DNA of 64,000 nt from Candidatus Babeliales bacterium (GCA_963701665.1 OY969622.1:832001-896000); one strand, 5' to 3'; shown: positions 1 through 24,657, numbered from the stretch's first letter. The notes: generated from the sequence alone by a model not told the origin. Made by a program: numbers and translations.

Positions 1-1865
1 TTTTAGCTGCTGGATTCAATGGAACTTTCAGCGTTATCGCAAACATTAATGCTCAAGCAAATGCTACTTTTACTGCCTTAGCAGATTTAAAAATTACTAT
101 CACCAATGATTTTGCTGCAACATGGACAATTTTGGCTGCCGGTTTCAATGGAACTTTCTCTGCACTCAATGCCTGCTGCACGAATATAAATTCCGAATTC
201 CAACAAACATGGACGATCTTAGCCGCCGGATTTAATGGCACCTTCAGCTCACTCCCTGCTTTTATGAGCGATTTTAACGCAACATGGACTATTTTAAATG
301 CTGGTTTCAATGGCACATTCTCTGCTCTCAATGCTTGTTGCACGAATATAAATTCTGAATTCCAGCAAACATGGACTATCCTAGGTGCCGGCTTCAATGG
401 AACTTTCAGCACATTCGCCACTATTATTTCAGATTTTAATGATACATGGTCTACTCTAGCAGCAGGCTTTAACGGAACAGCCTCGGCACTCAACGCCTGT
501 TGTACCAACATTACTTCCGAATTTCAACAAACATGGACAATTTTAAATGTCTCAACTGAAAACCTTTCAAATCCAGTTATGATTACACAAGCAAATTTTG
601 GAGCAACAGGTGGAACACAATACGTCATTTCAACATCTGGTGTCTATAGGTTGGGTAGTAACATTGTCTTTACACCAGCTACAGCAATACCCGCTATTCT
701 TATTACAACAACCAATGTCGTTCTTGATTTACAACTCTTCACCTTAAGCCAGGGAAATAGTACCACGGGTGTGAATGCTATCCAAGTTAGTTCTGGTATG
801 GCCAGTGTGTATATTCAAAATGGCATGATAGAAAATTTCACGCGAGCGGCAATATCATTCCAAGGAAATAATCAAGGAGTGGGAATTGATAATACCACCA
901 CCCTATCATGTGCCGTGCGCGGTATCGAGTTCATTGCATCAGGAACTAGCCAAAACATTACCATTCAAAATTGCAAAGTATACAATTGCTCAACATCAGC
1001 GAGCGCTGATAATGCAATGATCTTACAAGCATGTAAAAAGGGAATAATAAAGAATTGTGCCTTGAACGGAAATGGCGTTGCTTCAAAAAACATAACGGCA
1101 CTTAATTTTAACGGCTGCATTGAATTTAATGTATCTGACATCAGTATGTATGAAAATCTTGGTTCAAGCTTCAATGGCGTACAATTAGATAGCACGTCAT
1201 CACTCAATAATTTTACTAATTGCATCATCATAAATAATCAAAGTTCAGGATCGTCCGGAACATGCGCAGGAATTAACCTTAACGGAAGCTCCTCTAATAC
1301 TTTTAATTCTTGTATCATTAATAATAATAACGCTAGCAACAGCGGAGCATTCAATGGCATTTGGCTTCAAGGTTCTGCCCCAAATAATAATACGTTTAAC
1401 TCATGTAAAGTATCTTTTAACACAGCGGCGTTGCTCTGTACTGCAATTTATGGCAACGCTGGTTCTTCTAATTCCTTTAACTTCTGCCAAACAAATGCAA
1501 ATACATCAACTTCTTCCTACGGATCAGGAATTACTATTAATTCCAACTCTAACACGCTTAACAATTGCATAGTACTCTCTAATAAAGGACCAGCCGTTCA
1601 AGGCTTTGGTATCACTACGACAGGAAATGATTGTGTGGTTAAGGATTGTCTGAGTGCATTTAACCTAGGATCCAGTGGCGGCAATGGCTTTGGGTTTAAT
1701 AATACCAGCAATGCAATTCTCTATTATAGGAATGTTGCTTATGATAATCCGGGTACGCAAGCTTTTGGTATAGCAGCTGGATCTTTAACGACGCCAACAG
1801 CACCAGCATCACAACACTTGGCAACCGTCACATCACCTTGGACTAATTTAGCACTCGCTGCTTAA
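1..1865 (+). CDS. Large repetitive fibre/adhesin-like protein 1 (5'-truncated by the window): CC-containing stalk repeats plus C-terminal right-handed beta-helix domain
   Basis: Frame is open from position 3 (LAAGFNGTFS...). Same repeats as the next two genes, then ISTSGVYRLGSNI and Asn/Cys/Gly-rich beta-helix-like turns; ends PWTNLALAA. Confidence 0.85.
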   Translation, partial: LAAGFNGTFSVIANINAQANATFTALADLKITITNDFAATWTILAAGFNGTFSALNACCTNINSEFQQTWTILAAGFNGTFSSLPAFMSDFNATWTILNAGFNGTFSALNACCTNINSEFQQTWTILGAGFNGTFSTFATIISDFNDTWSTLAAGFNGTASALNACCTNITSEFQQTWTILNVSTENLSNPVMITQANFGATGGTQYVISTSGVYRLGSNIVFTPATAIPAILITTTNVVLDLQLFTLSQGNSTTGVNAIQVSSGMASVYIQNGMIENFTRAAISFQGNNQGVGIDNTTTLSCAVRGIEFIASGTSQNITIQNCKVYNCSTSASADNAMILQACKKGIIKNCALNGNGVASKNITALNFNGCIEFNVSDISMYENLGSSFNGVQLDSTSSLNNFTNCIIINNQSSGSSGTCAGINLNGSSSNTFNSCIINNNNASNSGAFNGIWLQGSAPNNNTFNSCKVSFNTAALLCTAIYGNAGSSNSFNFCQTNANTSTSSYGSGITINSNSNTLNNCIVLSNKGPAVQGFGITTTGNDCVVKDCLSAFNLGSSGGNGFGFNNTSNAILYYRNVAYDNPGTQAFGIAAGSLTTPTAPASQHLATVTSPWTNLALAA

Positions 1866-1922
1866 AAGGAGATAAACACCATGGAACGTATTCCTCTTTT
1901 TAACATATAGAAAAGGAACTTA

Positions 1923-4900
1923 ATGAAGCAATCCCTCGTTTTCTATACTATTGTATTGAGCATTCTGTTTTGCACTTCAGCAATCTCAGGTTCAATAGAT
2001 ATGCTACATCAGCCACGCTTTACTCCTGATATTGTCATCGACACAGCATGTAAAAAGTTTATTCAAGATATAATTGAAGAAGCGCTCACTGAAAATATGT
2101 ATGAACAACTTTCTGAGGGATTATTAACATGTTACGCAACGATTCAATGCGAACCCGAATGTTGCACATTGCCGCTTAATGATCTCATAGACGCTTTCCC
2201 AGAATTAGTAGCGAAATTAGAAGATAAGCTTAAAGCACCTCGCCCACAAGGCGGTCATGCTATTGTTGGCAGCAGTACCATAGATTTTGAATCTATTATA
2301 GCCTTCTTATTACGCTTAGAATTTCTCATCAATCAAATAAGTCAACAACAAACATTTTGCTGTAACCAAATACTCGCTGATTTTCAACAAACATGGACAA
2401 TTCTTGCCAATCTCTCAATTACTACTACAGTAGATCTTTCTCCTGTGTTTACCACACTCGATGCATGTTGTTCTAATATAACCTCGGAATTCCAGCAAAC
2501 ATGGACAATTCTTGCCAATCTTTCAATTACTGCTACGGCGGATCTTGCTCCTGTGTTTACCTCACTCGATGCATGTTGCTCTAACATAACCTCGGAGTTC
2601 CAGCAAACATGGACCATACTAGCCAATCTCTCAGTTACTGCCACGGCTGATCTTTCTTCCGTATTCACTGCACTTAATGCGTGCTGCTCAAACATAAATT
2701 CTGAATTTCAACAAACATGGACTATCTTAGCTGCTGGGTTTAATGGTACCTTCTCTGCTATCAATAGTTTCAATACCACTATTACTGCAGATTTTTCATC
2801 AACGTGGACTATTTTAAATGCTGGATTTAATGGAACCTTCAGCGCACTCAATACCTGCTGCACAAATATAAACTCGGAATTCCAACAAACATGGACTATC
2901 TTAGCTGCTGGTTTTAATGGTACATTCTCTGCGATTAATGCCATCACTATCGATACAAATGGTACTTTAACCGCAATTGTTGATTTAACAACTACTATCA
3001 CTAATGACTTTGCTGCAACATGGACTATTTTAAATGCCGGATTTAATGGAACTTTCTCTACGCTCAATACCTGCTGCACGAATATAAACTCGGAATTCCA
3101 ACAAACATGGACTATCTTAGCTGCTGGTTTTAATGGTACATTCTCTGCAATTAATGCCATCACTATCGATACAAATGGTACTTTAACCGCAATTGCTGAT
3201 TTAACAACTACTATCACTAATGACTTTGCTGCAACGTGGACAATTTTAAATGCCGGATTCAATGGAACCTTCAGCGTACTCAATGCTTGTTGCGCGAATA
3301 TAAATTCTGAGTTTCAACAGACGTGGACTATTTTAGCTGCTGATTTTAATGGTACATTCTCTGCAATTAATGCCATCACTATCGATACAAATAGTACTTT
3401 AACCGCAATTGCTGATTTAACAACTACTATCACTAATGACTTTGCTGCAACGTGGACAATTTTAAACGCTGGTTTCAATGGCACATTTTCTGCTCTCAAT
3501 GCTTGTTGCACAACTATAAACTCTGAATTCCAACAAACGTGGACTATCTTAGCTGCTGATTTTAATGGTACATTCTCTGCAATTAATGCCATCACTATCG
3601 ATACAAATGGTACTTTAACCGCAATTGCTGATTTAACAACTGCTATCACCAATGACTTTGCTGCAACGTGGACAATTCTTAATGCTGGATTCAATGGCAC
3701 TTTCTCCGCTCTCAATGCTTGCTGCACAACTATAAACTCTGAGTTTCAACAGACGTGGACTATGTTAGCCGCTGATTTCAATGGCACATTCTCTGTAATT
3801 AATGCGATCACTATTGATGCAAATGGTACTTTAACCGCAATTGCAGATTTAACAACTACTATCACTAATGATTTTGCTGCAACATGGACAATTATTAATG
3901 CTGGATTTAATGGAACTTTCAGCGTACTCAATGACTGTTGCACAACTATAAATTCCGAATTTCAACAAACATGGACCATTTTAGCTGCTGATTTCAATGG
4001 CACATTCTCTGCAATTAATGCAATTAATGAGTCGAATGGCACTTTTACTGCGTTAGCAGATTTAAAAACTACCATCACGAATGACTTTGCTGCAACATGG
4101 ACGATTCTTAATGCTGGATTCAATGGCACTTTCTCTGCTCTCAATGCTTGTTGCACGAATATAAATTCTGAATTTCAACAAACGTGGACCATTTTAGCCG
4201 CTGATTTCAATGGCACATTCTCTGTAATTAATGCGATCACTATTGATGCAAATGGTACTTTAACCGCAATTGCAGATTTAACAACTACTATCACTAATGA
4301 TTTTGCTGCAACGTGGACAATTCTTAATGCTGGATTCAATGGCACATTCTCCGCGCTCAATGCTTGCTGCACCAATATAAATTCAGAATTTCAACAAACA
4401 TGGACAATTCTTAATGCTGGATTCAATGGCACATTCTCCGCAATCAATGCAATAAATACGAATGCAAATAGCACTTTCACCGCCTTAGCAGATTTAAAAA
4501 CTACTATCACCAATGATTTTGCTGCAACATGGACTCTGTTAAATACTGGATTCAATGGCACTTTTTCCGCTCTCAATGCTTGTTGCACGAATATCAATTC
4601 CGAATTCCAACAAACGTGGACTATTTTAGCTACCGGGTTCAATGGCACCTTCAGTACACTCTCAAATCTTACTACTACGGTGACCAATGACTTTGCAGCA
4701 ACGTGGACCATTTTAGCTGCTGGTTTTAATGGAACTTTCAGCACTATCGCAAACATTAATGAAGCAAATGCTACTTTTACTGCATTAGCAGATTTAACAA
4801 CTACTATCACTAATGATTTTGCTGCAACATGGACTATTTTAGCCACTGGTTTCAATGGAACGTTCTCTGCGCTCAATGCTTGTTGCACAAATATAAATTC

Positions 4901-6587
4901 TGAATTCCAACAAACATGGACTATTTTAGCTGCCGGATTTAATGGCACTTTCAGCACACTCCCAAATCTTACTGCTGACTTTGCAGCAACATGGACAATT
5001 TTAGCTGCAGGCTTTAATGGGACATTCTCGGCACTCAACGCGTGTTGTACCAACATTACTTCCGAATTCCAACAAACATGGACTATCTTAGCTGCTGGAT
5101 TCAATGGAACTTTCAGCACGCTCGCCGCTATTCTTGGTGATTTTAACGCTACATGGACTATTCTAGCTGCAGGCTTTAATGGGACATTCTCGGCACTCAA
5201 CACCTGTTGTACCAACATCACTTCTGAGTTCCAACAAACCTGGACTATTTTAAATGTCTTAACCGAAAACCTTTCAAATCCGGTTATGATTACCCAAGCA
5301 AATTTTGGTGCAACGGGAGGAACTACCTATACCATTTCAACATCGGGTGTGTATAGATTAGGGAGTAACATCGTCTTTACCCCAGCAACAGCAATACCTG
5401 CTATTCTTATTACCACGACTGATGTCGTTCTTGATTTGCAGCTTTTCAACCTCACTCAAGGAAATGCCACTACCGGTGTAAATGCCATCCAAGTTAGTTC
5501 TGGTATGGCTGACGTTTACATTAAAAATGGTTTGATAGAAAATTTCACACGCGCAGCAATATCGTTTCAGGGAAGCAATCAAAGAGTTGGCATTGATACT
5601 ACAACCACCATATCATGTGCCGTAACTGGCATTGAATTCGTTTCAACAGGAACGCCTAGTCAAAACATTACTATTCAACATTGTAATATTTATAACTGCT
5701 CAACGGCATCAGGTGCCACTTTCCCACTGAATTTACAATTATGTAAAGAAGGAAAAATAAAAAATTGTAACTTTAATAGTAATGGTACTTCATCAAACAA
5801 CATAAATGTGCTTAATTTTAGCGGCTGTGTTGAATTTATTGTGAAAGATATCAGTGTGAAAGAAAATCTTGGTTCATTTCTCAATTGTGTATCATTAGAT
5901 AGCACATCTTCCCTTAATTATTTCAATAATTGCAGCATTCTCAATAATCAAAGCAATGGTAATACCCTCGATGGATTTGTCATGAATGGCAGCAACTCTA
6001 ATATTTTCAATAATTGTATTGTAAATGGAAACCAAGGCACCTCAAATGGCTCTTTTAATGGATTCATAATGCAAAGTGGCGCATATAACAACACATTTAA
6101 TAGTTGCACAGCTTCCTATAATACTACATCAGGAAGTACAGCAACTATTGTTGCGTTTAACTTAGGGGGACCTTATAACTTCGCATTTAATTGCGTAGCA
6201 GAGTCAAATATCTGCGGGGGTAACCAATGTTATGGCTGCCTTGTCAGTACATCCACCAATATAATCGATAACTTCGTAGCAGCCAATAATATGTCTGGAG
6301 GTACTTCTGATTGTTATGGCATCAATATTAATCAAGCAGCTGCTTATAACAATGTAATAAGCAATTGTTTGTGCTCGAATAATAACAGTGCTACAAACGG
6401 CGATACTGTTGGAATAAGCAATTCAAGTTTACAATATTTATTCTATCGTAATGTTTCCTACTCGAATAATGGAACACAAATTAGCGGTATAGCTTCCCCT
6501 GGATCGTTGACAACGCCAACAGCACCAGCATCACAGAACCTAGGAACTGTGACGGGCGCTTGGACTAATTTAGCTCTTGCAAGTTAA
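1923..6587 (+). CDS. Large secreted repetitive fibre/adhesin-like protein 2 (1554 aa)
   Basis: Signal-peptide-like N-terminus, RBS AAGGA, about 16 CCxxIxxE/DFQQTWTIL units (72-aa/216-nt main period), beta-helix-like C-terminal domain ending WTNLALAS. Confidence 0.9.
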   Translation: MKQSLVFYTIVLSILFCTSAISGSIDMLHQPRFTPDIVIDTACKKFIQDIIEEALTENMYEQLSEGLLTCYATIQCEPECCTLPLNDLIDAFPELVAKLEDKLKAPRPQGGHAIVGSSTIDFESIIAFLLRLEFLINQISQQQTFCCNQILADFQQTWTILANLSITTTVDLSPVFTTLDACCSNITSEFQQTWTILANLSITATADLAPVFTSLDACCSNITSEFQQTWTILANLSVTATADLSSVFTALNACCSNINSEFQQTWTILAAGFNGTFSAINSFNTTITADFSSTWTILNAGFNGTFSALNTCCTNINSEFQQTWTILAAGFNGTFSAINAITIDTNGTLTAIVDLTTTITNDFAATWTILNAGFNGTFSTLNTCCTNINSEFQQTWTILAAGFNGTFSAINAITIDTNGTLTAIADLTTTITNDFAATWTILNAGFNGTFSVLNACCANINSEFQQTWTILAADFNGTFSAINAITIDTNSTLTAIADLTTTITNDFAATWTILNAGFNGTFSALNACCTTINSEFQQTWTILAADFNGTFSAINAITIDTNGTLTAIADLTTAITNDFAATWTILNAGFNGTFSALNACCTTINSEFQQTWTMLAADFNGTFSVINAITIDANGTLTAIADLTTTITNDFAATWTIINAGFNGTFSVLNDCCTTINSEFQQTWTILAADFNGTFSAINAINESNGTFTALADLKTTITNDFAATWTILNAGFNGTFSALNACCTNINSEFQQTWTILAADFNGTFSVINAITIDANGTLTAIADLTTTITNDFAATWTILNAGFNGTFSALNACCTNINSEFQQTWTILNAGFNGTFSAINAINTNANSTFTALADLKTTITNDFAATWTLLNTGFNGTFSALNACCTNINSEFQQTWTILATGFNGTFSTLSNLTTTVTNDFAATWTILAAGFNGTFSTIANINEANATFTALADLTTTITNDFAATWTILATGFNGTFSALNACCTNINSEFQQTWTILAAGFNGTFSTLPNLTADFAATWTILAAGFNGTFSALNACCTNITSEFQQTWTILAAGFNGTFSTLAAILGDFNATWTILAAGFNGTFSALNTCCTNITSEFQQTWTILNVLTENLSNPVMITQANFGATGGTTYTISTSGVYRLGSNIVFTPATAIPAILITTTDVVLDLQLFNLTQGNATTGVNAIQVSSGMADVYIKNGLIENFTRAAISFQGSNQRVGIDTTTTISCAVTGIEFVSTGTPSQNITIQHCNIYNCSTASGATFPLNLQLCKEGKIKNCNFNSNGTSSNNINVLNFSGCVEFIVKDISVKENLGSFLNCVSLDSTSSLNYFNNCSILNNQSNGNTLDGFVMNGSNSNIFNNCIVNGNQGTSNGSFNGFIMQSGAYNNTFNSCTASYNTTSGSTATIVAFNLGGPYNFAFNCVAESNICGGNQCYGCLVSTSTNIIDNFVAANNMSGGTSDCYGININQAAAYNNVISNCLCSNNNSATNGDTVGISNSSLQYLFYRNVSYSNNGTQISGIASPGSLTTPTAPASQNLGTVTGAWTNLALAS

Positions 6588-6600
6588 AAAGGAGATAAAT

Positions 6601-9600
6601 ATGGGGTACATCCCTCTTTTTAAAATATATAGTCGCGCCTTTATTTTTCTGATTTTATGCTCACATTATGCAACTCTACCATCAGAAAATGAAAATTTTC
6701 GGGCAACTACACCATGCTTGGTTGAAAATGCTTCAGCAATTCTCGATCAAGAATTTCCCATTACTGAAGCATTCAAAGTTTTCATAAAAAATAACGTTGA
6801 GAAAATACTTTTACAAAAAGAGGCTACACTTTCACCTGCATTGCAGAAATGTTATGAGATACTATGCGATAATCCGACATGCCTCTCGTTACCAACAAAA
6901 CATCTGCTTGGCGCATTTCCAGAACTGATAACAGCATTCCATACGAGCATAAAATATTCTCCACCTAACGTTGCTGCAAACAACCCACCTGAAGACGTAG
7001 AGTCTATTATTATTATATTATTGCGTTTGCAGGTTCTTTTAAATGAATTCAACCAACAACAAATTTCATGCTGCAACCAAATATTGGCTGATTTTCAACA
7101 AACGTGGACCATCCTTGCTCAGATTTCAGGTATCTCCCACGTTGATTTTTCTCCTGTCTTTACGGCACTCGATGCATGTTGCTCGAACATTACTTCAGAA
7201 TTCCAACAGACGTGGACTATTCTTTCAAGCATTACAACGCCCACGTTGACCGTTGATTTTTCTCCTGTATTCACTGCACTCGATGCATGTTGCTCGAATA
7301 TTACTTCAGAATTTCAACAGACGTGGACTATTCTTGGACACCTTTCAACAATGACGGCAGCAGTCGATTTTTCTTCTGTCTTTACAGCACTCAACGCATG
7401 CTGCTCAAACATAAATTCTGAATTCCAACAGACATGGACTATTTTAAATGCTGATTTCAATGGAACTTTCTCTTCTCTTGCTATGCCTACGATAGACTTT
7501 GCTGAAACATGGACCATTTTAAATGCCGGATTTAATGGAACCTTCTCCGCACTCAACGCATGCTGTAACAACATCAATTCTGAATTCCAACAAACATGGA
7601 CCATTTTAGCCGCCGATTTTAATGGAACTTTTACTGCACTTAGTGCAATCAGCACTGAACCTAATGGCACTTTCACGGTTATCGCAGATTTAACAACTAC
7701 TATTACTAACGACTTTGCTGCAACGTGGACAATTATTAATGCTGGATTCAATGGAACCTTCAGTGCACTCAACGCCTGCTGCATGAATATAAATTCCGAA
7801 TTCCAACAAACATGGACTATCCTAGCTGCTGATTTCAATGGTACATTCTCTGCAATCAATGCAATAAACATAGATGCAAATGGCACCTTCACCGCAATCG
7901 CAGATCTAACAACTACTATAACCAATGACTTTGCTGCAACATGGACAATTATTAACGCTGGATTCAATGGAACCTTCTCTGCCCTCAATGCTTGTTGCAC
8001 AACTATAAACTCTGAATTTCAACAAACATGGACTATCTTAGGCGCGGGTTTTAATGGAACCTTCAGCGCTATCGCAAACATTAATGCTGAAACAAACGGT
8101 ACTTTCACCGCGATAGCAGATTTAACAACTACGGTCACCAATGATTTTGCTGCAACATGGACAATTTTTAATGCTGGGTTCAATGGAACCTTCTCTGCTC
8201 TCAATGCTTGTTGCACAACTATAAACTCTGAATTTCAACAAACATGGTCAATTTTAGCTGCTGATTTCAATGGAACTTTCAGCACCATCGCAAACATTAA
8301 TGCTGAAACAAACGGTACTTTCACTGCGTTAGCAGATTTAACAACTACGGTAACCAATGACTTTGCTGCAACGTGGACAATTATTAATGCTGGATTTAAT
8401 GGCACTTTCTCTGCGCTCGATGCTTGTTGCACGAATATAAACTCTGAGTTTCAACAGACATGGACTATTCTAGCTGCTGGGTTTGATGGAACTTTCAGCG
8501 CCATCGCAAACATTAATGCCGAAACAAACGGTACTTTCACTGCGTTAGCAGATTTAACAACTACTATCACTAATGATTTTGCCGCAACATGGACAATTAT
8601 TAATGCTGGATTTAATGGAACTTTCAGCGCACTCAATGCCTGTTGCACAACTATAAATTCCGAATTTCAACAAACATGGACCATTTTAGCTGCTGATTTC
8701 AATGGTACATTCTCTGCAATTAATGCCATCACTATTGATTCAAATGGCACACTTACTGCAATCGCTGATCTAACAACTACTATAACCAATGACTTTGCTG
8801 CAACATGGACAATTCTTAATGCCGGATTCAATGGAACCTTCTCTGCGCTCAATGCTTGTTGCATAACTATAAACTCTGAATTTCAACAAACATGGACTAT
8901 TTTAGCTGCTGGGTTTAATGGCACCTTCTCCGCAATCAATGCAATAAACACAGATGTAAATAGCACTTTCACAGCAATTGCGGATTTAAAAAACACTATC
9001 ACCAATGACTTTGCTGCGACATGGACGATTCTTAATGCTGGATTCAATGGAACTTTCTCTGCGCTCAATGCTTGTTGCTCAAATATCAATTCTGAGTTTC
9101 AACAAACATGGTCAATTCTAGGGGCTGGTTTTAATGGCACATTCTCCGCAATTAATGCGATCAGCACCGAACCTAATGGCACTTTCACAGCAATTGCGGA
9201 TTTAAAAAACACTATCACCAATGACTTTGTTGCAACGTGGACCATTCTTAATGCTGGATTTAATGGAACTTTTTCTGCACTTAATGCATGTTGCACAACT
9301 ATAAATTCCGAATTTCAACAAACGTGGACTATTTTAAGTGCAGGTTTCAATGACACCTTCAGTACACTCTCAACTCTTACTACTCTTACAACTGACTTTT
9401 CTGCAACATGGACTATTTTAGCCGCCGGATTTAATGGCACCTTCTCTGCACTCAATGCCATCACTAGTGATGGAAATGGTACCTTTAGCGCAATTGCTGA
9501 CTTAAAAAATACTACTACTAATGATTTTGCAGCGACATGGACTATTTTAGCTGCTGGCTTTAATGGCACCTTCTCTGCCCTCAATGCCTGTTGCACTAAC

Positions 9601-11346
9601 ATCAATTCTGAATTCCAACAAACATGGTCCATCTTAGCCGCAGGCTTTAATGGCACATTTAGTACTGTTGCCAATCTTATCACTTTTACCACTGAATTCT
9701 TTCCCACATGGACTATTTTAGCTGCTGGATTTAACGGCACCTTCTCTGCCCTCAATGCCTGTTGCACTAACATCAATTCTGAATTTCAACAAACATGGTC
9801 TATCTTAGCCGCAGGCTTTAATGGCACGTTTAGTATTGTTTCTAATCTTAACACTACTATTGCCGCCGACCTTGCTTTCACAGCAACGATTATTAATGCC
9901 GGATTTAATGGAACCTTCTCTGCTCTCAATGCATGTTGTAATAATATAACGTCTGAATTTCAACAAACATGGACGATTTTAAACGTCTTAATTGAAAATC
10001 TTTCTAATCCAACCATGATTACGCAAGCAAATTTTGGAGTAGGAGGACAATCATCATATGCTATCTCCTCGCCGGGAGTATATCGATTGGGTGCTAATAT
10101 CACGTTCAACCCTACCGGGCCAGGATTTAATGCAATTTTTATCACAACTTCTAGTGTTATTCTCGACTTACAGGATTTCACGCTTACACAAGGCAATTCC
10201 CAAAGTAACACGTTTGGTGTTGCTGTTATTGCCGGTTCAAACTATGTCTATATTAAAAATGGTGCCATCTCAAACTTCAGTTCCTCAGCCATAGATTTCC
10301 AAGGCAACAATCAGTTCATAGGAGTTGACAACACAACCACTATATCGTGCGGAGGTTGTGGTATCGAAATCGATCCTTTTGGAAACCCTACCCTAGATTT
10401 TAGTATTCAAAATTGCAATATATATAATTGCGCAAGCGGTAGCACCCTCCCCTACGGCATGCGATTATGGAACTGTCAAAACGGTTCTGTGAAGAATTGC
10501 ACTATCTCCGGATGCGGTAATAGTGCAAATAATGTCACGGCACTCGATGTAATTGATTTTCTCTACAACGACGTATCTAATATCAACATTTATGAAAATT
10601 TTGGTTCTAGTGTAAATGGCATAGAATTTGATTATAGCTCTTCTTATAATAGGTTCACTAATTGTACTGTTATAAATAATCAAGCGGTATCATCAACGGG
10701 ACAATCTACGGGAATTAATATTTTTGGAGGCGCTTATAATATTTTTGATAACTGTACTGTTAACAACAATGGTGCGCCCACAAATGGAACCGTATATGGC
10801 ATTCTCACGCAAAATAATGGAGGGATACCAGGTAATGCTGCTTCTTATAACACCTTTCGTAATTGTTCTGCTTCATTTAACAATGCTGGAACAACAGCCG
10901 GCATTTATATAAGTGGCGGTTCTAACAACAACATAGTTAATTGTCAAACAATTGCAAATCTTGCAACAAATGGTCAGTGTGTAGGATGTTATCTTCTCAC
11001 CGGTTCCAATATAGTTGACACTTGTGTTACCTCGAGCAATGTAAGTACGACAGGTGCATGTTATGGCGTTTACGTTGGCAGTAATTCTTGTGTCATCAAG
11101 GATACTCTTTCTGCAAATAACAGTGGAACAGGTGCTACTGGTGGCGTAGGTTTTTTCAATGGGGGAACCTCAGTTTTGTTTTATAGAAACGTGGCTTATG
11201 ACAACTCAACAACTTCATCACAATGGATCTATACAGGAGGATTTGGAGGTTCTTTAACACCACCAACACCAGCAGTCACATCTCCTGTATCACAAAATTT
11301 AAATAGTGCTACATCGTGGTGGACCAATCTGAATGTTGCCAGTTAA
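6601..11346 (+). CDS. Large secreted repetitive fibre/adhesin-like protein 3
   Basis: AGGAG RBS at 6590-6594 favours ATG 6601 over the ORF-track start. Same architecture as protein 2 with a more divergent head; ends WWTNLNVAS. Confidence 0.9.
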   Translation: MGYIPLFKIYSRAFIFLILCSHYATLPSENENFRATTPCLVENASAILDQEFPITEAFKVFIKNNVEKILLQKEATLSPALQKCYEILCDNPTCLSLPTKHLLGAFPELITAFHTSIKYSPPNVAANNPPEDVESIIIILLRLQVLLNEFNQQQISCCNQILADFQQTWTILAQISGISHVDFSPVFTALDACCSNITSEFQQTWTILSSITTPTLTVDFSPVFTALDACCSNITSEFQQTWTILGHLSTMTAAVDFSSVFTALNACCSNINSEFQQTWTILNADFNGTFSSLAMPTIDFAETWTILNAGFNGTFSALNACCNNINSEFQQTWTILAADFNGTFTALSAISTEPNGTFTVIADLTTTITNDFAATWTIINAGFNGTFSALNACCMNINSEFQQTWTILAADFNGTFSAINAINIDANGTFTAIADLTTTITNDFAATWTIINAGFNGTFSALNACCTTINSEFQQTWTILGAGFNGTFSAIANINAETNGTFTAIADLTTTVTNDFAATWTIFNAGFNGTFSALNACCTTINSEFQQTWSILAADFNGTFSTIANINAETNGTFTALADLTTTVTNDFAATWTIINAGFNGTFSALDACCTNINSEFQQTWTILAAGFDGTFSAIANINAETNGTFTALADLTTTITNDFAATWTIINAGFNGTFSALNACCTTINSEFQQTWTILAADFNGTFSAINAITIDSNGTLTAIADLTTTITNDFAATWTILNAGFNGTFSALNACCITINSEFQQTWTILAAGFNGTFSAINAINTDVNSTFTAIADLKNTITNDFAATWTILNAGFNGTFSALNACCSNINSEFQQTWSILGAGFNGTFSAINAISTEPNGTFTAIADLKNTITNDFVATWTILNAGFNGTFSALNACCTTINSEFQQTWTILSAGFNDTFSTLSTLTTLTTDFSATWTILAAGFNGTFSALNAITSDGNGTFSAIADLKNTTTNDFAATWTILAAGFNGTFSALNACCTNINSEFQQTWSILAAGFNGTFSTVANLITFTTEFFPTWTILAAGFNGTFSALNACCTNINSEFQQTWSILAAGFNGTFSIVSNLNTTIAADLAFTATIINAGFNGTFSALNACCNNITSEFQQTWTILNVLIENLSNPTMITQANFGVGGQSSYAISSPGVYRLGANITFNPTGPGFNAIFITTSSVILDLQDFTLTQGNSQSNTFGVAVIAGSNYVYIKNGAISNFSSSAIDFQGNNQFIGVDNTTTISCGGCGIEIDPFGNPTLDFSIQNCNIYNCASGSTLPYGMRLWNCQNGSVKNCTISGCGNSANNVTALDVIDFLYNDVSNINIYENFGSSVNGIEFDYSSSYNRFTNCTVINNQAVSSTGQSTGINIFGGAYNIFDNCTVNNNGAPTNGTVYGILTQNNGGIPGNAASYNTFRNCSASFNNAGTTAGIYISGGSNNNIVNCQTIANLATNGQCVGCYLLTGSNIVDTCVTSSNVSTTGACYGVYVGSNSCVIKDTLSANNSGTGATGGVGFFNGGTSVLFYRNVAYDNSTTSSQWIYTGGFGGSLTPPTPAVTSPVSQNLNSATSWWTNLNVAS

Positions 11347-11377: not shown

Positions 11378-11642
11378 TGGATTCTTCTTCGTTAAAACTT
11401 CGAAGAACAGGTTCCCACGACCCTTCGAAGCTCTTTGAGCGGAGTAGGGTCGGAATAACGAATATGCGCCACTATGTCATTACGAGTACGAACAAAGTGA
11501 TACGTGGTAATCCAAACTTTATTCTTCCTTAACAAGCCATGTAAAGGTGGGCGTGGCAATCCAGATTATAAAAATTAATTCCTATTTTTTTTCACAATTT
11601 TAATGCCACTATCGTACCATAACGATCTAATTAAAGTTCCCC
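11378..11642. repeat. Cluster of REP/MITE-like palindromic element arms with nested hairpin cassettes
   Basis: Shares TGTCATTxCGAG, CGTGGCAATCCAG, the AT core and CTTCG hairpin cassettes with the copies at 14111, 18108, 34063 and 59948. Confidence 0.75.
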
Positions 11643-12119
11643 GGTGTCATCCGCTGGGGAATGTTTTCTTTGCACAGCATTTTGATCGTTACCGCAAAAA
11701 ACTGTCACCACTCTATATTTTTTTTTATCAGGAATTCTATTTGGCTCATATCTTGATGTTATTAATTTTTTTAATTCATCATTATCTTCCATACGCTCAA
11801 CAGCTTCGAGATGCCGACCTTCAACAACCGCACCATTGTTAAGCAATATTTCTGCACAGTTACAAGATTTGCACCTTATACATGTATCTAAAAAATCCCC
11901 TTTATCTAAATCATCGGGGAAATGTTTTCGCTCAAACATTTGTTGCAATAGCTCATGCTTATCAGTTCCACATAACTCCTCAAGAGAATCCGGATTAGAA
12001 AGTTTAAAGAATGGAAGATCACCTGCACCCTTGTATCGTGCACCCTCTCGCATTGCATTAATGAGAAAGTTAGCCTGTAACAACATAAATATAAAAAATA
12101 AATTACATAATTTCATCAT
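11631..12119 (-). CDS. Secreted hypothetical protein with a possible single ankyrin-like repeat
   Basis: Hydrophobic N-terminus followed by AMRE; AEILLNNGAVV resembles an ankyrin repeat. Start uncertain (12140 or 12119). Confidence 0.6.
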   Translation of the reverse strand: MMKLCNLFFIFMLLQANFLINAMREGARYKGAGDLPFFKLSNPDSLEELCGTDKHELLQQMFERKHFPDDLDKGDFLDTCIRCKSCNCAEILLNNGAVVEGRHLEAVERMEDNDELKKLITSRYEPNRIPDKKKYRVVTVFCGNDQNAVQRKHSPADDTGEL

Positions 12120-12279
12120 GGAACCCCTTATAAAAAACATTATTTTTTAACAGTATAATTATATACTTTAAAACATATCTTTAAAGACTATTTTTTTTCA
12201 CAATTTTTCATTATACTCACGCTTTGTACAAAGCAGATCACTACTACAATAAGCATATGAAAAATTAGATAGGGACCAC

Positions 12280-14046
12280 ATGATCAAACACCATTCTTTC
12301 ACACGACATGCACTCGCTGCACTTTGTTTATTCGCGCTCAACGCGCGCGCCGTACACATTTCATTTTCTTCAAAAGTTGTTGATCCTAAAACGCTCGACA
12401 TCTCAATACGCGCGCAGTTAGCACCTGAAGAATGGTTGTACAAAGATTTAATGTCATTTTCCGTTGATTCTCCCGATGTAGAATTAACGCAATGGCATGC
12501 ATCGCCATCTGCAAAAGCGGTGTATGATCCTGCGTTCAAGACAACGAAAAAAATATTCGAGGGTTTAGTGACGTTTTCTATGCAAGCACGCGCCAAACAA
12601 GAAACCTCGCCTGAGCAAACACGCGTTCATATTACTTTTTACCGCAATAAGCAGCAAAATCCCGAAGAAGTTACCTTTCCACTTTCATTTACACAACCCT
12701 CGCAGAGCCAAAAAGATATCGCACAAGAACCTCAAAAACTCGATACAGCTGCATCAAAACCAAAACAAGATCAACCGTTGCAAACACAAAATTATATAAC
12801 GCCATCGTTATCAGCGACTATTTCATCGATCGTAAAGCAAACTGAATCAACACCAATTCGTTTATTGCTCGTTTTCTTATTAGGAATTTTACTCAGCCTC
12901 ACGCCATGCATTTATCCAATGGTGCCAATCACCGCGGGCATTTTACAAGCACAAGGCAGCAAATCTTTGATCTATAATTTTTTGCTTTCATGTTCATATG
13001 CATTTGGTATGGCAACAACGTTTGCAATCTTTGGCTTACTTGCCGGATGCACTGGCCCATTATGCGGACGATTGCTCATGGAACCATTATTTATCGCCGG
13101 GCTCGTTGCTATTTTAGCCTACTTAGCACTCTCCATGTTCGGTTTTTATGAAATATATGTTCCCTCGTTTTTCAAACCCTCAACGAATGTTAAAAGCAGT
13201 TCCCTCGCTTCCACGTTTCTTTTTGGCGCAGCGAGCGGCACTATTGCTTCGCCGTGCGTTTCACCAGGACTTGCGCTGCTTTTAAGCATCGTAGCAACTC
13301 TAGGAAGCAGAATTTTAGGATTTATGTTGCTATTCACGTTCGGCCTTGGCTTGAGCATGCCACTTTTAATTATTGGTACTTTTTCTAGTTCCATTAATTT
13401 GTTACCACGAGCGGGTTCATGGATGATTGAAATTAAAAAAATGTTTGGCTTTATGATGCTTGGCATGTGCCTTTATTATATAAGTTATGTTGTCCCAGCC
13501 AATTTCATGATTTGGATCATCGTACTTTTCATATTCATTTGTGGCCTCTATTATCTTTATAACGGTGAAACTTACCGCTCTTCATTAGCAAAAAATAGTA
13601 ATCGCATTGTGGGCACAACATTAATCCTTGGAGCTTTTGTATTATCATTTTATGGCGTACGCAATTATTACCTACCTCATGAGGTTGTTGATAAAAATTG
13701 GCACACTGATTATCAAACTGCTCGTGATGAAGCAATCAAATCTCACAAAAAACTCTTTATCGATTTCTGGGCTACCTTCTGCCCTGTTTGCTTAGCAATC
13801 AATAAAACAGTATTAACAAAAGCAAACATCGCTCATGAACTTGCTGGTTTTGCAATGCTAAAAGTTGATGGCACACATGCGCATCATCAGCCGTATGCAA
13901 GATTACAACAAAAATTCACCATTACCGGATTTCCGACATTCCTTATTGTTGATCCTACTAATGAACAGATTGTTGCCAAATTCGGCGGTGAGATATATGA
14001 CATGTCTGAAGAAGCACTGATTGCCTTGCTACAACAATATAAATAA
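12280..14046 (+). CDS. dsbD: Thiol:disulfide interchange protein DsbD
   Basis: LTPCIYPMVP and ASPCVSP transmembrane motifs, LPRAGSWM, C-terminal thioredoxin domain DFWATFCPVC. Confidence 0.92.
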   Translation: MIKHHSFTRHALAALCLFALNARAVHISFSSKVVDPKTLDISIRAQLAPEEWLYKDLMSFSVDSPDVELTQWHASPSAKAVYDPAFKTTKKIFEGLVTFSMQARAKQETSPEQTRVHITFYRNKQQNPEEVTFPLSFTQPSQSQKDIAQEPQKLDTAASKPKQDQPLQTQNYITPSLSATISSIVKQTESTPIRLLLVFLLGILLSLTPCIYPMVPITAGILQAQGSKSLIYNFLLSCSYAFGMATTFAIFGLLAGCTGPLCGRLLMEPLFIAGLVAILAYLALSMFGFYEIYVPSFFKPSTNVKSSSLASTFLFGAASGTIASPCVSPGLALLLSIVATLGSRILGFMLLFTFGLGLSMPLLIIGTFSSSINLLPRAGSWMIEIKKMFGFMMLGMCLYYISYVVPANFMIWIIVLFIFICGLYYLYNGETYRSSLAKNSNRIVGTTLILGAFVLSFYGVRNYYLPHEVVDKNWHTDYQTARDEAIKSHKKLFIDFWATFCPVCLAINKTVLTKANIAHELAGFAMLKVDGTHAHHQPYARLQQKFTITGFPTFLIVDPTNEQIVAKFGGEIYDMSEEALIALLQQYK

Positions 14047-14431: not shown

Positions 14432-14842
14432 ATGAAGTTAAAAAATATATTATGTATTACCATTATTTTCGCCACATTGCAGCTACAAGCAGCCAGTAAT
14501 CAGTCATCCTACGACTTGTCTACATTGACTCGTTATTTGACGACAAATAACAATTCCTCACAAGAACAAACAAATACACAACAAAACAGTTTCGCTAATC
14601 AAAGTACACTCGCTACATTGAATACATTGTTAAATTCAACCCCAGATTCATTCAAAAGTACGGTTTTAGATAAAATACCAACCTCATGGAAAATATATCT
14701 CGTTAAGTTAATCGAATTTATAAAAACGTATTTGAATGATGAAAATAAACAAAATTTACAGAAAATTCAAAATATATTGCAGCAAAATATAGCCGCCACC
14801 CAGCAACAACACACTCCAGCTTTTGGCCAAACTGAACAATAA
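14432..14842 (+). CDS. Secreted hypothetical protein, Q/N-rich
   Basis: Signal peptide MKLKNILCITIIFATLQLQA. Confidence 0.75.
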   Translation: MKLKNILCITIIFATLQLQAASNQSSYDLSTLTRYLTTNNNSSQEQTNTQQNSFANQSTLATLNTLLNSTPDSFKSTVLDKIPTSWKIYLVKLIEFIKTYLNDENKQNLQKIQNILQQNIAATQQQHTPAFGQTEQ

Positions 14843-14856
14843 TTGGGAGTTAAAAA

Positions 14857-15372
14857 ATGAAGAATTTAAAATTAATTATCGCTATTGCAGCAATTGCAAT
14901 AGCGATAATCACCAACATATCCGCTATGGAACAACGGCCATCAGGGATGATGGAAGATTGGACAGGGATGATGGAAGATTGGATGGCAGAATACTCTGCC
15001 ACACTAGATCCGGAAGGATACGCAAGGGAACAGGCATCAAAACAGACGGAAGAACAAGGAGAAGAACAAGAAAAGGAAAAGAGACTACGAGAATTACAAC
15101 AGCTAGAACAAAGACGTGAAATGGAAAAAATGAAAATGAAGCCTGCTACAAAAATTTTCGGTATTTCTGTCTTAAACCAATTAATGGAACAAAAATCCGA
15201 TGAAGCACGAAATGCAACATTAAACACATTACCAACCGAAATAAAAGAATCTTTAATTTCGGTAATTGATGATCGAAGACAACTTTTAGATAGAAATCAA
15301 CCTGATCAAGCAGCTTTAGTAGAAGATTTAAATATGTTGCAAAAGCAAATTCAACAAAATTTAAGTCAATAA
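14857..15372 (+). CDS. Secreted hypothetical protein (paralogue cluster), coiled-coil
   Basis: Signal peptide then AMEQ; C-terminal half similar to 15929..16321 (LNTLPTEIKESLISVIDDR vs LNKLPIEMQEYLIPTIDNR). Confidence 0.8.
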   Translation: MKNLKLIIAIAAIAIAIITNISAMEQRPSGMMEDWTGMMEDWMAEYSATLDPEGYAREQASKQTEEQGEEQEKEKRLRELQQLEQRREMEKMKMKPATKIFGISVLNQLMEQKSDEARNATLNTLPTEIKESLISVIDDRRQLLDRNQPDQAALVEDLNMLQKQIQQNLSQ

Positions 15373-15391
15373 TTACGATGAAAGAAAAAAA

Positions 15392-15775
15392 ATGAAGAAT
15401 TTAAAATTAATTATTCTCGTAATTACGATAGCATCCCCGATTACAAATGCGTTAGCAATGATTGAACCAAAAAAAACAGAAGACGTTTCTTATGGTTTTT
15501 ATGCTCCACGAGAACGTAGAATACGACTGGGAGAACATAAAATACAACTGCAGCAAAAACAAAAATTAAAAGAACAAAAGCAACGAAATACGGAAGCTGC
15601 GAAGCCCCTTTTAGCCGTAAGCAAAGAATTAAAACCAAAGATGATGGAAGAAAGTTACGATTCCAACTGGGATATTCCCGAGGAAGATGTAGGAATCAAG
15701 TCAGATTGGGCAAAATATAATATGGAATATCACCTGAGGAAAACATCTGCAAAAGCACGAGAACAAAAATATTAA
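15392..15775 (+). CDS. Secreted hypothetical protein sharing its signal peptide with 14857..15372
   Basis: Identical MKNLKLII start, then AMIE. Confidence 0.7.
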   Translation: MKNLKLIILVITIASPITNALAMIEPKKTEDVSYGFYAPRERRIRLGEHKIQLQQKQKLKEQKQRNTEAAKPLLAVSKELKPKMMEESYDSNWDIPEEDVGIKSDWAKYNMEYHLRKTSAKAREQKY

Positions 15776-15928
15776 GAAAAAGGCAACTAGTATCACTACT
15801 ATGCTATTAAATCAGTGTTATTGCTACAAGATTCCGATAAGGCAGCTTTAGTAGAAGATTTAAATATGTTGCAAAAACAAATTCAACAAAACTTGAGTCA
15901 ATAATTAAATTTATAAAGGAAAAATATT

Positions 15929-16321
15929 ATGAAAATAACAAAAATTTTATTCATTTTAATGTTAACGTTATGCGCACTATCTTCCAACGCAATACCAATA
16001 CCTAATCCGGAAGAGGAAGATATAGACTATGAATTAGAAAAGCGAAAAGCCTTAGAAAAAACAAGAATGAAATCGCTTACAGAAATCACTGCACTATCTA
16101 CATTGAAAAAATTACTAGCCGAACCTTCACGTGAAGAAAGAGAACAGGTTCTGAATAAACTACCAATTGAAATGCAAGAATATCTTATTCCAACCATTGA
16201 TAATCGTATAAGCCTCTTAGACACATCTATAGTAGATGAAGCGGAACAAGCAAAGAAATTGCAAGAATTAAAAGAAGAATTAACAGAAGAAATATTTATC
16301 AAGCAATTATTCGTAGAATAA
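15929..16321 (+). CDS. Secreted hypothetical protein, paralogue of 14857..15372
   Basis: RBS AAGGA, signal peptide, shared C-terminal helical motif. Confidence 0.8.
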   Translation: MKITKILFILMLTLCALSSNAIPIPNPEEEDIDYELEKRKALEKTRMKSLTEITALSTLKKLLAEPSREEREQVLNKLPIEMQEYLIPTIDNRISLLDTSIVDEAEQAKKLQELKEELTEEIFIKQLFVE

Positions 16322-16587: not shown

Positions 16588-17712
16588 ATGAAAAAAAAGA
16601 ATACCGTTCAAAAAAAAACTATGGAGCCTAAAAACTATGCTCAGTTTTTAGAACACATAAAAAAAGATATTCACCAAACACAACTTAAAGCTGCTTTATC
16701 CGTTACACAAAATCTAACATTGCTCTATTGGCGAATTGGAAAAGATCTTTCAGAGAAAATTAATATTGAAGGCTGGGGCGCAAAAGTTGTAGAAAAGTTA
16801 GCACATGATTTAGAAATAGCATTTCCCGGAATAACCGGATTTTCAAGAACAAATATATACAGAATGATCTCATTTTATACAGCTTATCCAATTTGTCCCA
16901 CAGCTGTGGGACAAATAGAAGATAATCCCCTTTTAATGCTGCCATGGGGCCATAACGCCGTTATCCTAGAAAAAATTCAGGATAATAAACAACGGCTTTG
17001 GTATGCCAAAAAAACCATTGAAAATGGCTGGAGCAGAAGTGTGCTTTCTATGTGGATCGAATCCGATTTATATAGCCGACAAGGCAAATCGATAACCAAT
17101 TTTAAAATCACTTTGCCTGAACCTAATTCTGATTTAGCGCAACAAACGCTAAAAGATCCTTATAATTTTGACTTTCTCACCATTGATGAAAAAGCACGAG
17201 AACGAGAAATTGAATTGGGCCTCATGGAACATATCCAAAAGTTTTTGTTAGAACTTGGACAAGGATTTGCTTTTATAGGAAGGCAATATCCTCTAAAAGT
17301 AGGCGCCAAAGAATTTTTTATTGACATGCTTTTTTATCATGTACAACTACGATGTTTTATTGTTGTTGAACTGAAAGCAGAAGAATTTGATGCCAGAGAT
17401 TTAGGCCAAATTAATTTATATTTAGCTGCAGTTGATAAGCTATTAAGGCATCAAGGAGATTTGCCCACCATAGGGCTATTACTTTGCAAATCAAAAGATA
17501 ATTTTGTAGCCGAATATGCGTTAAGCACAAGCAAACAACCCATTGGCATATCAAGTTATACAACCAAACTAGTTGAAACATTGCCAAAAGAATTTAAAGG
17601 CAAGTTACCTACCATAAAAGAAATTGAAGCAGAGCTAAGCAAGAGTGAAGTTTCAGAAAAAAAACAAGCACCAGAAAAAACAAAGAAACCTCGCAAAAAG
17701 AAAGCAAGCTAA
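16588..17712 (+). CDS. yhcG: YhcG/DUF1016 family PD-(D/E)XK nuclease-domain protein
   Basis: LYWRIG, GWGAKVVEKLA, LPWGHN, ENGWSR, LKDPYNFDFL, FLLELGQGFAFIGRQ, IDMLFYH, VVELK, GQINLYL motifs. Confidence 0.92.
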   Translation: MKKKNTVQKKTMEPKNYAQFLEHIKKDIHQTQLKAALSVTQNLTLLYWRIGKDLSEKINIEGWGAKVVEKLAHDLEIAFPGITGFSRTNIYRMISFYTAYPICPTAVGQIEDNPLLMLPWGHNAVILEKIQDNKQRLWYAKKTIENGWSRSVLSMWIESDLYSRQGKSITNFKITLPEPNSDLAQQTLKDPYNFDFLTIDEKAREREIELGLMEHIQKFLLELGQGFAFIGRQYPLKVGAKEFFIDMLFYHVQLRCFIVVELKAEEFDARDLGQINLYLAAVDKLLRHQGDLPTIGLLLCKSKDNFVAEYALSTSKQPIGISSYTTKLVETLPKEFKGKLPTIKEIEAELSKSEVSEKKQAPEKTKKPRKKKAS

Positions 17713-24537: not shown

Positions 24538-24589
24538 TGAGTCCCCCAGTATGTTATGATGAAATACGTGCCACGTTCTGACTTTTTAC

Positions 24590-24633
24590 TTAAAAAGCCT
24601 TCTTAACGATAGTTCATTAAGAAGGCTTTTTAA
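24590..24633. terminator. Intrinsic terminator between the two translocase genes
   Basis: TTAAAAAGCCTTCTTAA-10 nt-TTAAGAAGGCTTTTTAA. Confidence 0.8.
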
Positions 24634-24657
24634 TTTCATATACTCACAATCATCTGA

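Follow-up and report, generated by a model that had tools for sequence, protein, structure and literature searches.

The closest described counterparts of the proteins reported here are long stalks that carry a head, and disulfide knots that join parallel chains. Trimeric autotransporter adhesins (YadA, BadA, SadA; type Vc) consist of a long, repetitive, polar and low-charge coiled-coil stalk with a beta-structured head for host adhesion, and occur as tandem or multiple paralogues of differing length. Phage tailspikes and pre-neck appendages (phi29 gp12, Sf6, HK620, CBA120 TSP3) are elongated proteins whose distal end is a beta-helix, and phage tape measure proteins are long helical proteins with regularly spaced aromatic residues and an apparently selected length. 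Among collagens and extracellular coiled coils, chains are joined by disulfide knots or rings, as in the collagen III Cys-Cys knot, matrilin and COMP. In this study a tandem array of giant genes in a Candidatus Babeliales bacterium (GCA_963701665.1, OY969622.1) was analysed. The genome is a single contig of 1.337 Mb that is 93.6% complete, and the window, that is the whole stretch of 64,000 nucleotides studied, covers genome positions 832001-896000; coordinates are window positions unless given as genome positions. Dependentiae are widespread obligate parasites of protists, and we know of almost no experimental biology on them. Our analysis is best read as identifying proteins of the stalk-and-head adhesin kind that are nevertheless not trimeric autotransporter adhesins, tape measures or phage parts.

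Comparison with the described systems revealed several differences. Relative to the trimeric autotransporter adhesins, the polarity of the proteins is reversed, the head being C-terminal and a small conserved domain N-terminal. The C-terminus is a beta-helix head, and no YadA-type barrel (YadA_anchor, PF03895) was found in the proteins or in the genome. A YadA-like head is a left-handed trimer, whereas the head here is predicted to be a single-chain right-handed parallel beta-helix, and the autotransporter adhesins have no Cys-Cys ladder, unlike the proteins here. Identity as a trimeric autotransporter was rejected, the anchor being absent and the polarity reversed. Phage tailspikes share the head fold (Z 31.6-33.6 over 331-383 residues) but no sequence similarity; they have a short neck, whereas a Sec signal peptide and a helical rod of ~970 aa are present here, with no particle-binding N-domain and no phage context. 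Phage tape measure proteins differ in that the proteins here are exported, carry a folded head and lie outside any tail gene module. As in collagen III, matrilin and COMP, a ring between chains could be closed by the two cysteines that each chain has at one level; those proteins have a single terminal knot, whereas here it would recur 16 times, and no homology is implied.

Analysis of the plus strand revealed three long open reading frames (ORFs) at 3-1865 (5' end open), 1923-6587 (1554 aa, P0001) and 6577-11346 (P0002, with the ATG at 6601 as its probable start). A genome-wide motif scan and protein search extended this to four tandem giants at genome 824458-843346 with frames of 1566, 1553, 1558 and 1590 aa. 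Gene 1 begins 7.5 kb upstream of the window, and gene 1 and most of gene 2 lie outside it. An earlier reading of the sequence alone (hereafter the sequence-only reading) had counted at least three co-oriented paralogues; three are indeed visible in the window, but the array holds four. The genome also encodes two tandem medium paralogues (m1 and m2) at genome 1293633-1298769 (frames of 850 and 883 aa) and a further family member with a different beta-helix head at genome 104895-107435 (minus strand). A translation of 2809 aa (P0122) was set aside as an out-of-frame translation of the repeats.

Translations of the giants revealed a common plan of a Sec signal, a conserved N-domain of ~120 aa, a repeat rod of 965-971 aa and a non-repetitive C-terminal head of ~445 aa that is rich in Asn, Ser, Thr and Gly. 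This agrees with the signal peptide, repeat region of ~1000 aa and head of ~430 aa described earlier, the head lengths being ~430-450 aa. Gene 2 (genome 829204-833865, frame of 1553 aa, starting upstream of the window) contributes the last ~181 aa of its rod (3-545, plus strand; three Cys-Cys pairs, six TWTIL motifs, head start at residue 182) and its head with stop codon (546-1865, plus strand; Pfam Beta_helix 24.8 bits; 58% identical to the head of m1). Gene 3 (P0001, plus strand) consists of a signal peptide and N-domain of 145 aa, recognised by N-domain alignment (LPLNDLIDAFPELV...KAPRP motif; 1923-2357), a rod of 965 aa (2358-5252) made up of 36-aa, 29-aa and eight 72-aa units, and a head of 444 aa, placed by the head family alignment and the paralogue model, that ends in GAWTNLALAS and a stop codon (5253-6587). 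Gene 4 (plus strand) consists of a signal peptide and a divergent N-domain that shares 32-33% identity with its counterparts in genes 1-3 (6601-7068), a rod of 971 aa (7069-9981) and a head of 454 aa with stop codon, 46-47% identical to the other heads (9982-11346). The head starts at residue 1111 in P0001 and at residue 1136 in P0002. Comparison of the giants by region revealed that the rods are 82-86% identical, the N-domains 32-80% and the heads 46-64%.

A 216-nt period was identified in the rod DNA by Tandem Repeats Finder, with 8.6 copies at 87% match in gene 3 (2800-4652) and 8.5 copies at 82% match in gene 4 (7495-9336), together with sub-periods of 108/111 nt and 87/162 nt. The main unit of 72 aa (216 nt) named in the sequence-only reading is thus confirmed, both by these repeats and by the spacing of the Cys-Cys pairs. 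The protein repeats are built on FxxTWTIL...GFNGTFSALNACC, and a total of 29 TW(T/S)xx motifs in P0001 and 28 in P0002 were found. The pattern F-x-x-T-W-x-x-L proposed earlier is fitted by F-A-A-T-W-T-I-L. The anchors of the 72-aa unit are F4, F15, F33, F44 and L62, giving spacings of 11, 18, 11, 18 and 14 that sum to 72; the earlier series 11-14-18-11-18 has the same members and the same sum in a different order. Analysis of rod composition revealed threonine as the predominant amino acid (20%), followed by alanine (13.8%), asparagine (11.5%), isoleucine (9.1%) and phenylalanine (9.0%), with glycine at 5.4%; lysine is represented by 0.2%, and arginine, histidine and tyrosine never appear. The rod is nearly free of charge, and tryptophan is also abundant.

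The Fourier spectrum of core-type residues in the rods contains a single dominant peak at 3.59 residues, with a power of 19.1 in gene 3 and 15.1 in gene 4; the highest value among 50 shuffles was 2.76. The head gave no 3.59-residue peak in the same analysis. The phase of this seam is steady over hundreds of residues (for example 262-910 of gene 4) and unchanged across the GFNG sites, and the repeat lengths of 29, 36, 43, 54 and 72 residues are close to integral numbers of 3.6-residue turns. Among 20 divergent homologues, three with fewer than three Cys-Cys pairs were left out; in all of the remaining 17 the top peak falls at 3.47-3.68 and above the shuffles, while their Cys-Cys spacings vary from 11 to 137 residues. 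In a helical projection the invariant glycine (-136 degrees) and asparagine (+123 degrees) of FNGTF belong to the polar face. These results indicate that the rod is alpha-helical, with one straight hydrophobic seam of period 3.6 that runs through all repeat types. The sequence-only reading is supported by the periodicity and the projection as to an alpha-helical seam, on which the Cys-Cys pair falls; its hendecad core is not, since the period is 3.59-3.60 (18/5) and a strict hendecad has 3.67.

Database searches with the rod returned helical families. Matches in Pfam were Baculo_PEP_C, HTH_Mga, ATG17_like and KxDL, with Baculo_PEP_C (PF04513) reaching 46.8 bits in P0001 (cut-off 38) and 34.3 bits in P0002. 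In the available part of one survey, PF04513 is among the 20 Pfam families most prone to overlapping matches of the coiled-coil type (PMC3695513). The Baculo_PEP_C match is read as probable convergence, because the same region matches unrelated helical families and PF04513 is prone to such overlaps. A search of PDB sequences with the rod gave nothing significant (best E 0.14, a coronavirus S2 helical-bundle construct), and no NCBIfam family matched.

Vicinal cysteines form a regular ladder along the rod. In total 17 Cys-Cys pairs were found in P0001 and 16 in P0002, with a spacing of 72 aa in the central array. The 17th pair of gene 3 sits in its N-domain, so that each rod carries the ~16 pairs estimated earlier for each complete gene; the total number of cysteines per giant protein is 53-55. 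The rods of genes 1-4 are 967, 966, 965 and 971 aa long with 16 rungs each, and 15 of the 16 rungs lie within two residues of each other across all four genes, as they do between genes 3 and 4 in the window. The rods of m1 and m2 are both 248 aa long, with six rungs each at identical positions. The matched stalk lengths on which the sequence-only reading remarked are thus tighter than it had claimed, and the rungs are in register. Projected on a helix of 3.6 residues per turn, all 19 of 19 proteins place the two cysteines on either side of the hydrophobic moment, the first at about -65 degrees and the second at about +33 degrees, and the resultant (R) of the cysteine angle across proteins is 0.97, compared with 0.04 for random residues.

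Comparison of the 72-aa units within and between genes revealed that they are most alike within a gene and not by index across genes. Units of one gene share on average 83% nucleotide identity, compared with 80% for units that hold the same index in different genes; within gene 1 the identity reaches 94%. Homogenisation thus acts on the repeats of each gene, yet unit number and layout stay fixed, and rod length and register therefore appear to be under selection. A selected length could reflect fibres that need equal reach, or co-assembly of the paralogues.

Disulfide formation and export were considered from the gene content. A DsbD-type thiol:disulfide interchange protein with thioredoxin domains is encoded at 12280-14046 (plus strand; Pfam DsbD_TM 164.8 bits, DsbD_N 27.7 bits), 0.9 kb downstream of gene 4; its NCBIfam DsbD score of 252 bits is below the model cut-off of 330. 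The genome further encodes VKOR (93.9 bits) and thioredoxin-fold proteins. With VKOR, DsbD and thioredoxin-fold proteins encoded, oxidative folding would be possible in this bacterium. Two secretins in the genome constitute a candidate export route.

Taken together, we give an even chance to the reading that these proteins are Sec-exported fibres of an extracellular stage, composed of N-domain, in-register helical rod and distal beta-helix head, which bind the protist host. Oligomerisation, inter-chain disulfides, carbohydrate binding and a surface location are what we infer from the sequences. Several chains (three or more would be a guess) would lie parallel and in register in a nearly straight coiled coil, and at each rung the two cysteines of one chain would reach two neighbouring chains and close a disulfide ring. 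A parallel oligomer with 16 such inter-chain rings is suggested by the seam geometry together with the register. The rise of an alpha-helix is 1.5 A per residue; if the helix is continuous, the giants (966 residues) would form a stiff rod of ~145 nm and the shorter paralogues (248 aa) one of ~37 nm. The distal heads, with conserved structural ladders and variable surfaces, would bind or possibly cut host glycans, and binding would lead to capture and uptake of the extracellular parasite.

If this reading is true, the rod is a coiled coil of a new type, extracellular and stapled by disulfides, and offers a clear example of fibre length under selection. It is unusual in combining ~970 residues with 0.2% lysine and no arginine, an aromatic seam of period 3.6, a ladder of 16 rungs and a constant length in four paralogues. 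The genes would be concrete candidates for the host-attachment apparatus of Dependentiae, whose diverging heads may set host range. No paper describing these proteins was found in the literature on Dependentiae and Babeliales, which was partly judged by title and abstract; the terms fiber, fibre, adhesin and beta-helix each had zero occurrences in the accessible text of the Chromulinavorax paper.

Several observations weigh against this reading. With 20% threonine, 11.5% asparagine and 5.4% glycine, the composition is poor for a helix, three invariant Asn-Gly dipeptides occur in each 72-aa unit, and proline occurs in the 36-aa units. Single-residue indels shift the seam by ~100 degrees at a few sites (in gene 3, around residues 690 and 937 among others) and seam amplitude dips in the ITIDTNG segment, so the helix may be broken or folded back. 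AlphaFold2 predicted rod helices at pLDDT 40-55 in the m1 model and strands at pLDDT 43 for three 72-aa units, supporting neither fold; a three-copy prediction of a 216-aa rod segment (scores 0.12 and 0.02, mark 0.42, no controls) speaks neither for the reading nor against it. The proteins and repeats are homologous, so the agreement in cysteine phase among all 19 proteins counts as a single conserved trait rather than as 19 independent results. A 2424-aa homologue from genome G104 has ~30 TWTIL-like motifs and only two Cys-Cys pairs, which makes the cysteines an addition to the rod and the staples non-essential. DsbD is encoded within 25 kb of a rod gene in none of five related genomes (the closest case being ~27 kb away in a genome of the same genus), and no DsbA or DsbB Pfam match was found in the genome. 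Pfam scans of the proteins and flanks and the genome search for YadA_anchor found no outer-membrane anchor, sorting signal or dedicated secretion gene. The closest head folds include enzymes, and a catalytic role is possible. DsbD as a dedicated partner of the fibres was rejected as a conserved linkage on the same five genomes.

The first of these points lead to a monomeric rod, which we regard as unlikely. Here the helices would break at Asn-Gly, at proline or at ITIDTNG and fold into intramolecular bundles like those of spectrin or alpha-solenoids; the Cys-Cys pairs would be vicinal or inter-repeat disulfides, and the protein would be an exported spacer with a head, shorter, thicker and single-chain. 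Besides the invariant Asn-Gly dipeptides, the prolines, the amplitude dips and the phase jumps, it is favoured by the AlphaFold2 monomer, in which helices of 10-34 residues are separated by loops. However, the seam phase is unbroken at GFNG and the repeats are near-integral in turns, neither of which fold-back bundles need, and the same low pLDDT values mean that AlphaFold2 gave no confident intramolecular packing. With one Cys-Cys pair per helix-loop unit, antiparallel neighbours would moreover place the cysteines at opposite helix ends.

The head was analysed by structure prediction and structural comparison. AlphaFold2, given an alignment of 62 sequences, predicted residues ~420-843 of the 843-aa paralogue m1 as a right-handed parallel beta-helix with pLDDT 95-99. 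The model contains a three-sheet right-handed coil stack that matches ~50 solved beta-helix entries at Z 28-36 (rmsd 2.2-3.7 A). The best VIA-align matches were the AlgE4 A-module (Z 35.8; 317 residues aligned, 2.3 A), phi29 gp12 (Z 33.6; 380 aligned), and NosD and the Sf6 tailspike (Z 32.6 each), followed at Z ~28-30 by K5A lyase, AlgG, PL6 lyases, inulin fructotransferases and the adhesin PfbA. The matches of Foldseek in PDB were of similar kinds (polysaccharide lyases, epimerases, tailspikes), and their TM on the target was 0.4-0.5. A parallel beta-helix head, the fold assigned by the sequence-only reading, is thus supported by the model and by both structural searches. The best viral Foldseek matches are right-handed beta-helix proteins of the Klosneuvirinae (Klosneuvirus, Hyperionvirus, Barrevirus; E 4e-15 to 3e-12, TM 0.50-0.64 on the target, 14-18% identity), whose hosts are also protists; the likeness is one of structure.

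Sequence searches with the head were less productive. The Pfam family Beta_helix (PF13229) gave 24.8 bits in P0003, below the cut-off of 25.9, and no match in P0001 and P0002; many homologues carry PF13229. The head profile had no significant match among PDB sequences (best E 0.26), tblastn found no match to the head in 50,697 phage records, and no NCBIfam family matched it. In the family alignment the conserved columns are almost all asparagine, cysteine, glycine, phenylalanine or isoleucine ladder positions. No column between model residues 540 and 780 is acidic or basic in as many as 60% of the 62 sequences (no superposition on the catalytic sites of enzymes was made), and histidine constitutes 0.2% of the head. 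This column pattern fits a variable binding surface, and an enzyme would also be possible. No propeller insert is present in the heads of the window.

The structural matches raise a second alternative, that the protein is a secreted enzyme that degrades or modifies polysaccharide, with a head that opens a glycocalyx, a cyst wall or the contents of a food vacuole and a long spacer rod that distances or tethers it. The mannuronan C5-epimerases at the top of the ranking, the capsule lyases K5A and K1, the PL6 alginate lyases, the inulin fructotransferases and the phage depolymerase tailspikes all speak for such a role. We nevertheless consider it distinctly unlikely: the central coils have no conserved charged column and almost no histidine, the head has no sequence match to a solved enzyme, and the heads of the paralogues diverge fast (46-64% identity), as is usual for binding surfaces.

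The N-domain contains the motif LP..DL..A.PEL...KAPRP...CC, held in an alignment of 10 sequences and followed by the FxxTWTIL/CC repeats. In the m1 model it is helical over residues 46-115 at pLDDT 80-89. The N-domain matched no Pfam, NCBIfam or PHROG family, and a search of viral contigs for relatives gave 27 pattern matches of which none was confirmed. We infer that it serves as a cell-proximal anchor or an assembly nucleus.

Analysis of Dependentiae genomes revealed a patchy distribution. The rod query was found in 24 of 261 genomes (15 of 145 genera) and the head profile in 82 of 261 genomes (54 of 145 genera) at E <= 1e-10. A search of one genome per species for the repeat motif, a check suggested with the sequence-only reading and run with the pattern DFQ[QT]TW[TS]I, gave 12 pattern matches and two confirmed relatives, both Babeliales/Dependentiae. 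A phmmer search with a 620-aa fragment identified 450 proteins at E <= 1e-3, of which 35 reach E <= 1e-30, and the named homologues are from 'Candidatus Babeliales bacterium' or 'Candidatus Dependentiae bacterium'. On these sequence searches the family is confined to Dependentiae/Babeliales.

The family is also modular. Among the matches listed, many are proteins of ~440 aa with only a signal peptide and a head, ending in a ...WTN(L/I/M)... motif. Relatives often have one stalked gene followed by two to seven tandem head-only genes, each with a signal peptide, whereas here every head has its own rod. Stalked giants with head-only genes were observed at G025:C1:1090000-1106000 (1850 aa), G104:C4:156000-175000 (2424 aa) and G110:C6:257000-271000 (2005 aa). 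In homologues the same N-domain and rod carry other heads, namely a second beta-helix type and propeller-containing (WD40) heads. Three homologues (P0007, P0110 and P0174) have the same N-domain and rod with a different C-terminal domain ending in ...GWEELF; that of P0007, the only one scanned, matches phrog_1645 'virion structural protein' at E 5.9e-44.

A bolder form of the fibre reading, which we hold to be quite doubtful, is that the rods are rulers that set register, so that the four giants, and separately the two medium paralogues, form mixed disulfide-laddered bundles with several heads per fibre. If true, a ~145-nm fibre with several different heads and a ~37-nm fibre with two more would constitute a combinatorial, two-tier host-range device, comparable to phages with several receptor-binding proteins. 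The 16 rungs at the same heights would lock the register, and a nearly uncharged coiled coil of Thr, Asn, Phe and Trp would be a new extracellular class.

Cysteine-rich proteins may instead stiffen an envelope. Chlamydial elementary bodies have disulfide-cross-linked cysteine-rich envelope proteins, and a similar scaffold in the periplasm or outer layer could stiffen the extracellular stage of this bacterium. The 53-55 cysteines per protein and their regular ladder, the presence of VKOR and DsbD, and the report that one cultured member of the Dependentiae is without LPS synthesis genes (PMC6561590, in the part available) are consistent with it. We judge it improbable: a distal, fast-diverging head and interchangeable modules, one of them homologous to a phage virion protein, fit recognition better, and a rod found in 24 of 261 genomes would be odd for a core envelope component.

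The flanks of the array were examined for phage genes. Upstream are genes for a penicillin-binding protein (PBP) transpeptidase, FtsH, TolQ/TolR-type proteins, a PD40 propeller, a CCA/poly(A) polymerase-type protein and a WD40 protein; downstream are DsbD, Der, DnaX, ribosomal protein S2 and two TLC ATP/ADP translocases. These neighbours are housekeeping genes, no phage genes were seen among them, and Phage_sheath_1, Baseplate_J and YadA_anchor had no match in the genome, all of which bears out the earlier remark that no phage genes or autotransporter barrel are visible. The label 'tape-measure-like' fared less well, as it rests on a marginal match of rod residues 28-276 of the query to phrog_1272 (E 1.1e-5, 24.3 bits) with no Pfam TMP family. 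This match is weak enough that convergence between periodic helices could account for it. Identity as a tape measure protein was ruled out by the export signals and the lack of a tail module. The array could also be what is left of a phage or phage-tail-like particle, in which the rod would be a tape measure or the shaft of a tail fibre and the head a tailspike. This view can draw on this match and one at 1e-7 in P0007, on the tailspike-like head fold and on a separate tail-fibre-like gene with a C1q head that adjoins the medium paralogues, but it is highly improbable given the Sec signal peptide on every copy, the housekeeping flanks (Tol, FtsH, DsbD, Der, DnaX), the genome without sheath or baseplate families, the 50,697 phage records without a head match and the 27 N-domain pattern matches in viral contigs with none confirmed.

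The gene adjoining the medium paralogues encodes the 1683-aa P0180 (genome 1298867-1303918, minus strand) and lies tail-to-tail with them. It contains many 'NTIVxRDxSGNF..ITA' repeats, matches the PHROG tail fibre family phrog_5342 at E 1.6e-25 and has a C-terminal C1q domain (38.3 bits, cut-off 23.7). No signal peptide is obvious. The protein appears to be a second type of fibre in this genome, one that resembles those of phages.

Potential glycosylation sites were also counted in the rod. The sequon N-x-S/T occurs 46 times compared with 28.9 +/- 4.3 in shuffles, and D/E-x-N-x-S/T 14 times compared with 1.7, although the repeats are not independent. The bacterial-type sequon D/E-x-N-x-S/T (as DFNGT) is found 14 times in the rod at 2358-5252 and 12 times in that at 7069-9981, and each 72-aa unit has three NGT. 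N-glycosylation of the rod was dropped as a candidate, the repeats not being independent and the genome having no STT3/PglB match.

Further observations concern the surroundings of the family members. A cluster at genome 100368-115424 contains VKOR, the family member with the other head, three Sulfotransfer_1 paralogues and four ORFs of 301-345 aa, three of which match the rod query weakly (E 2e-6 to 4e-4) and the fourth of which matches Baculo_PEP_C weakly. The proximity of sulfotransferases to fibre genes could point to modification. Directly upstream of the array, the WD40 propeller protein with a weak Skp1_POZ-like N-terminus (genome 822565-823872, minus strand) is a candidate eukaryote-like effector. 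A terminator-like hairpin follows the array (11636-11662, plus strand), and a 169-aa ORF that belongs to no family lies between the last giant and DsbD (11631-12140, minus strand). The segment 14000-18000 is AT-rich and AT-skewed (GC 0.33-0.34, AT skew 0.14-0.24) and may be an inserted element; four small ORFs with no Pfam family are found at 14432-16321 and a gene for a YhcG-type PDDEXK nuclease at 16588-17712. The two adjacent TLC ATP/ADP translocase genes at 23134-26004 (minus strand) are consistent with an energy-parasitic lifestyle.

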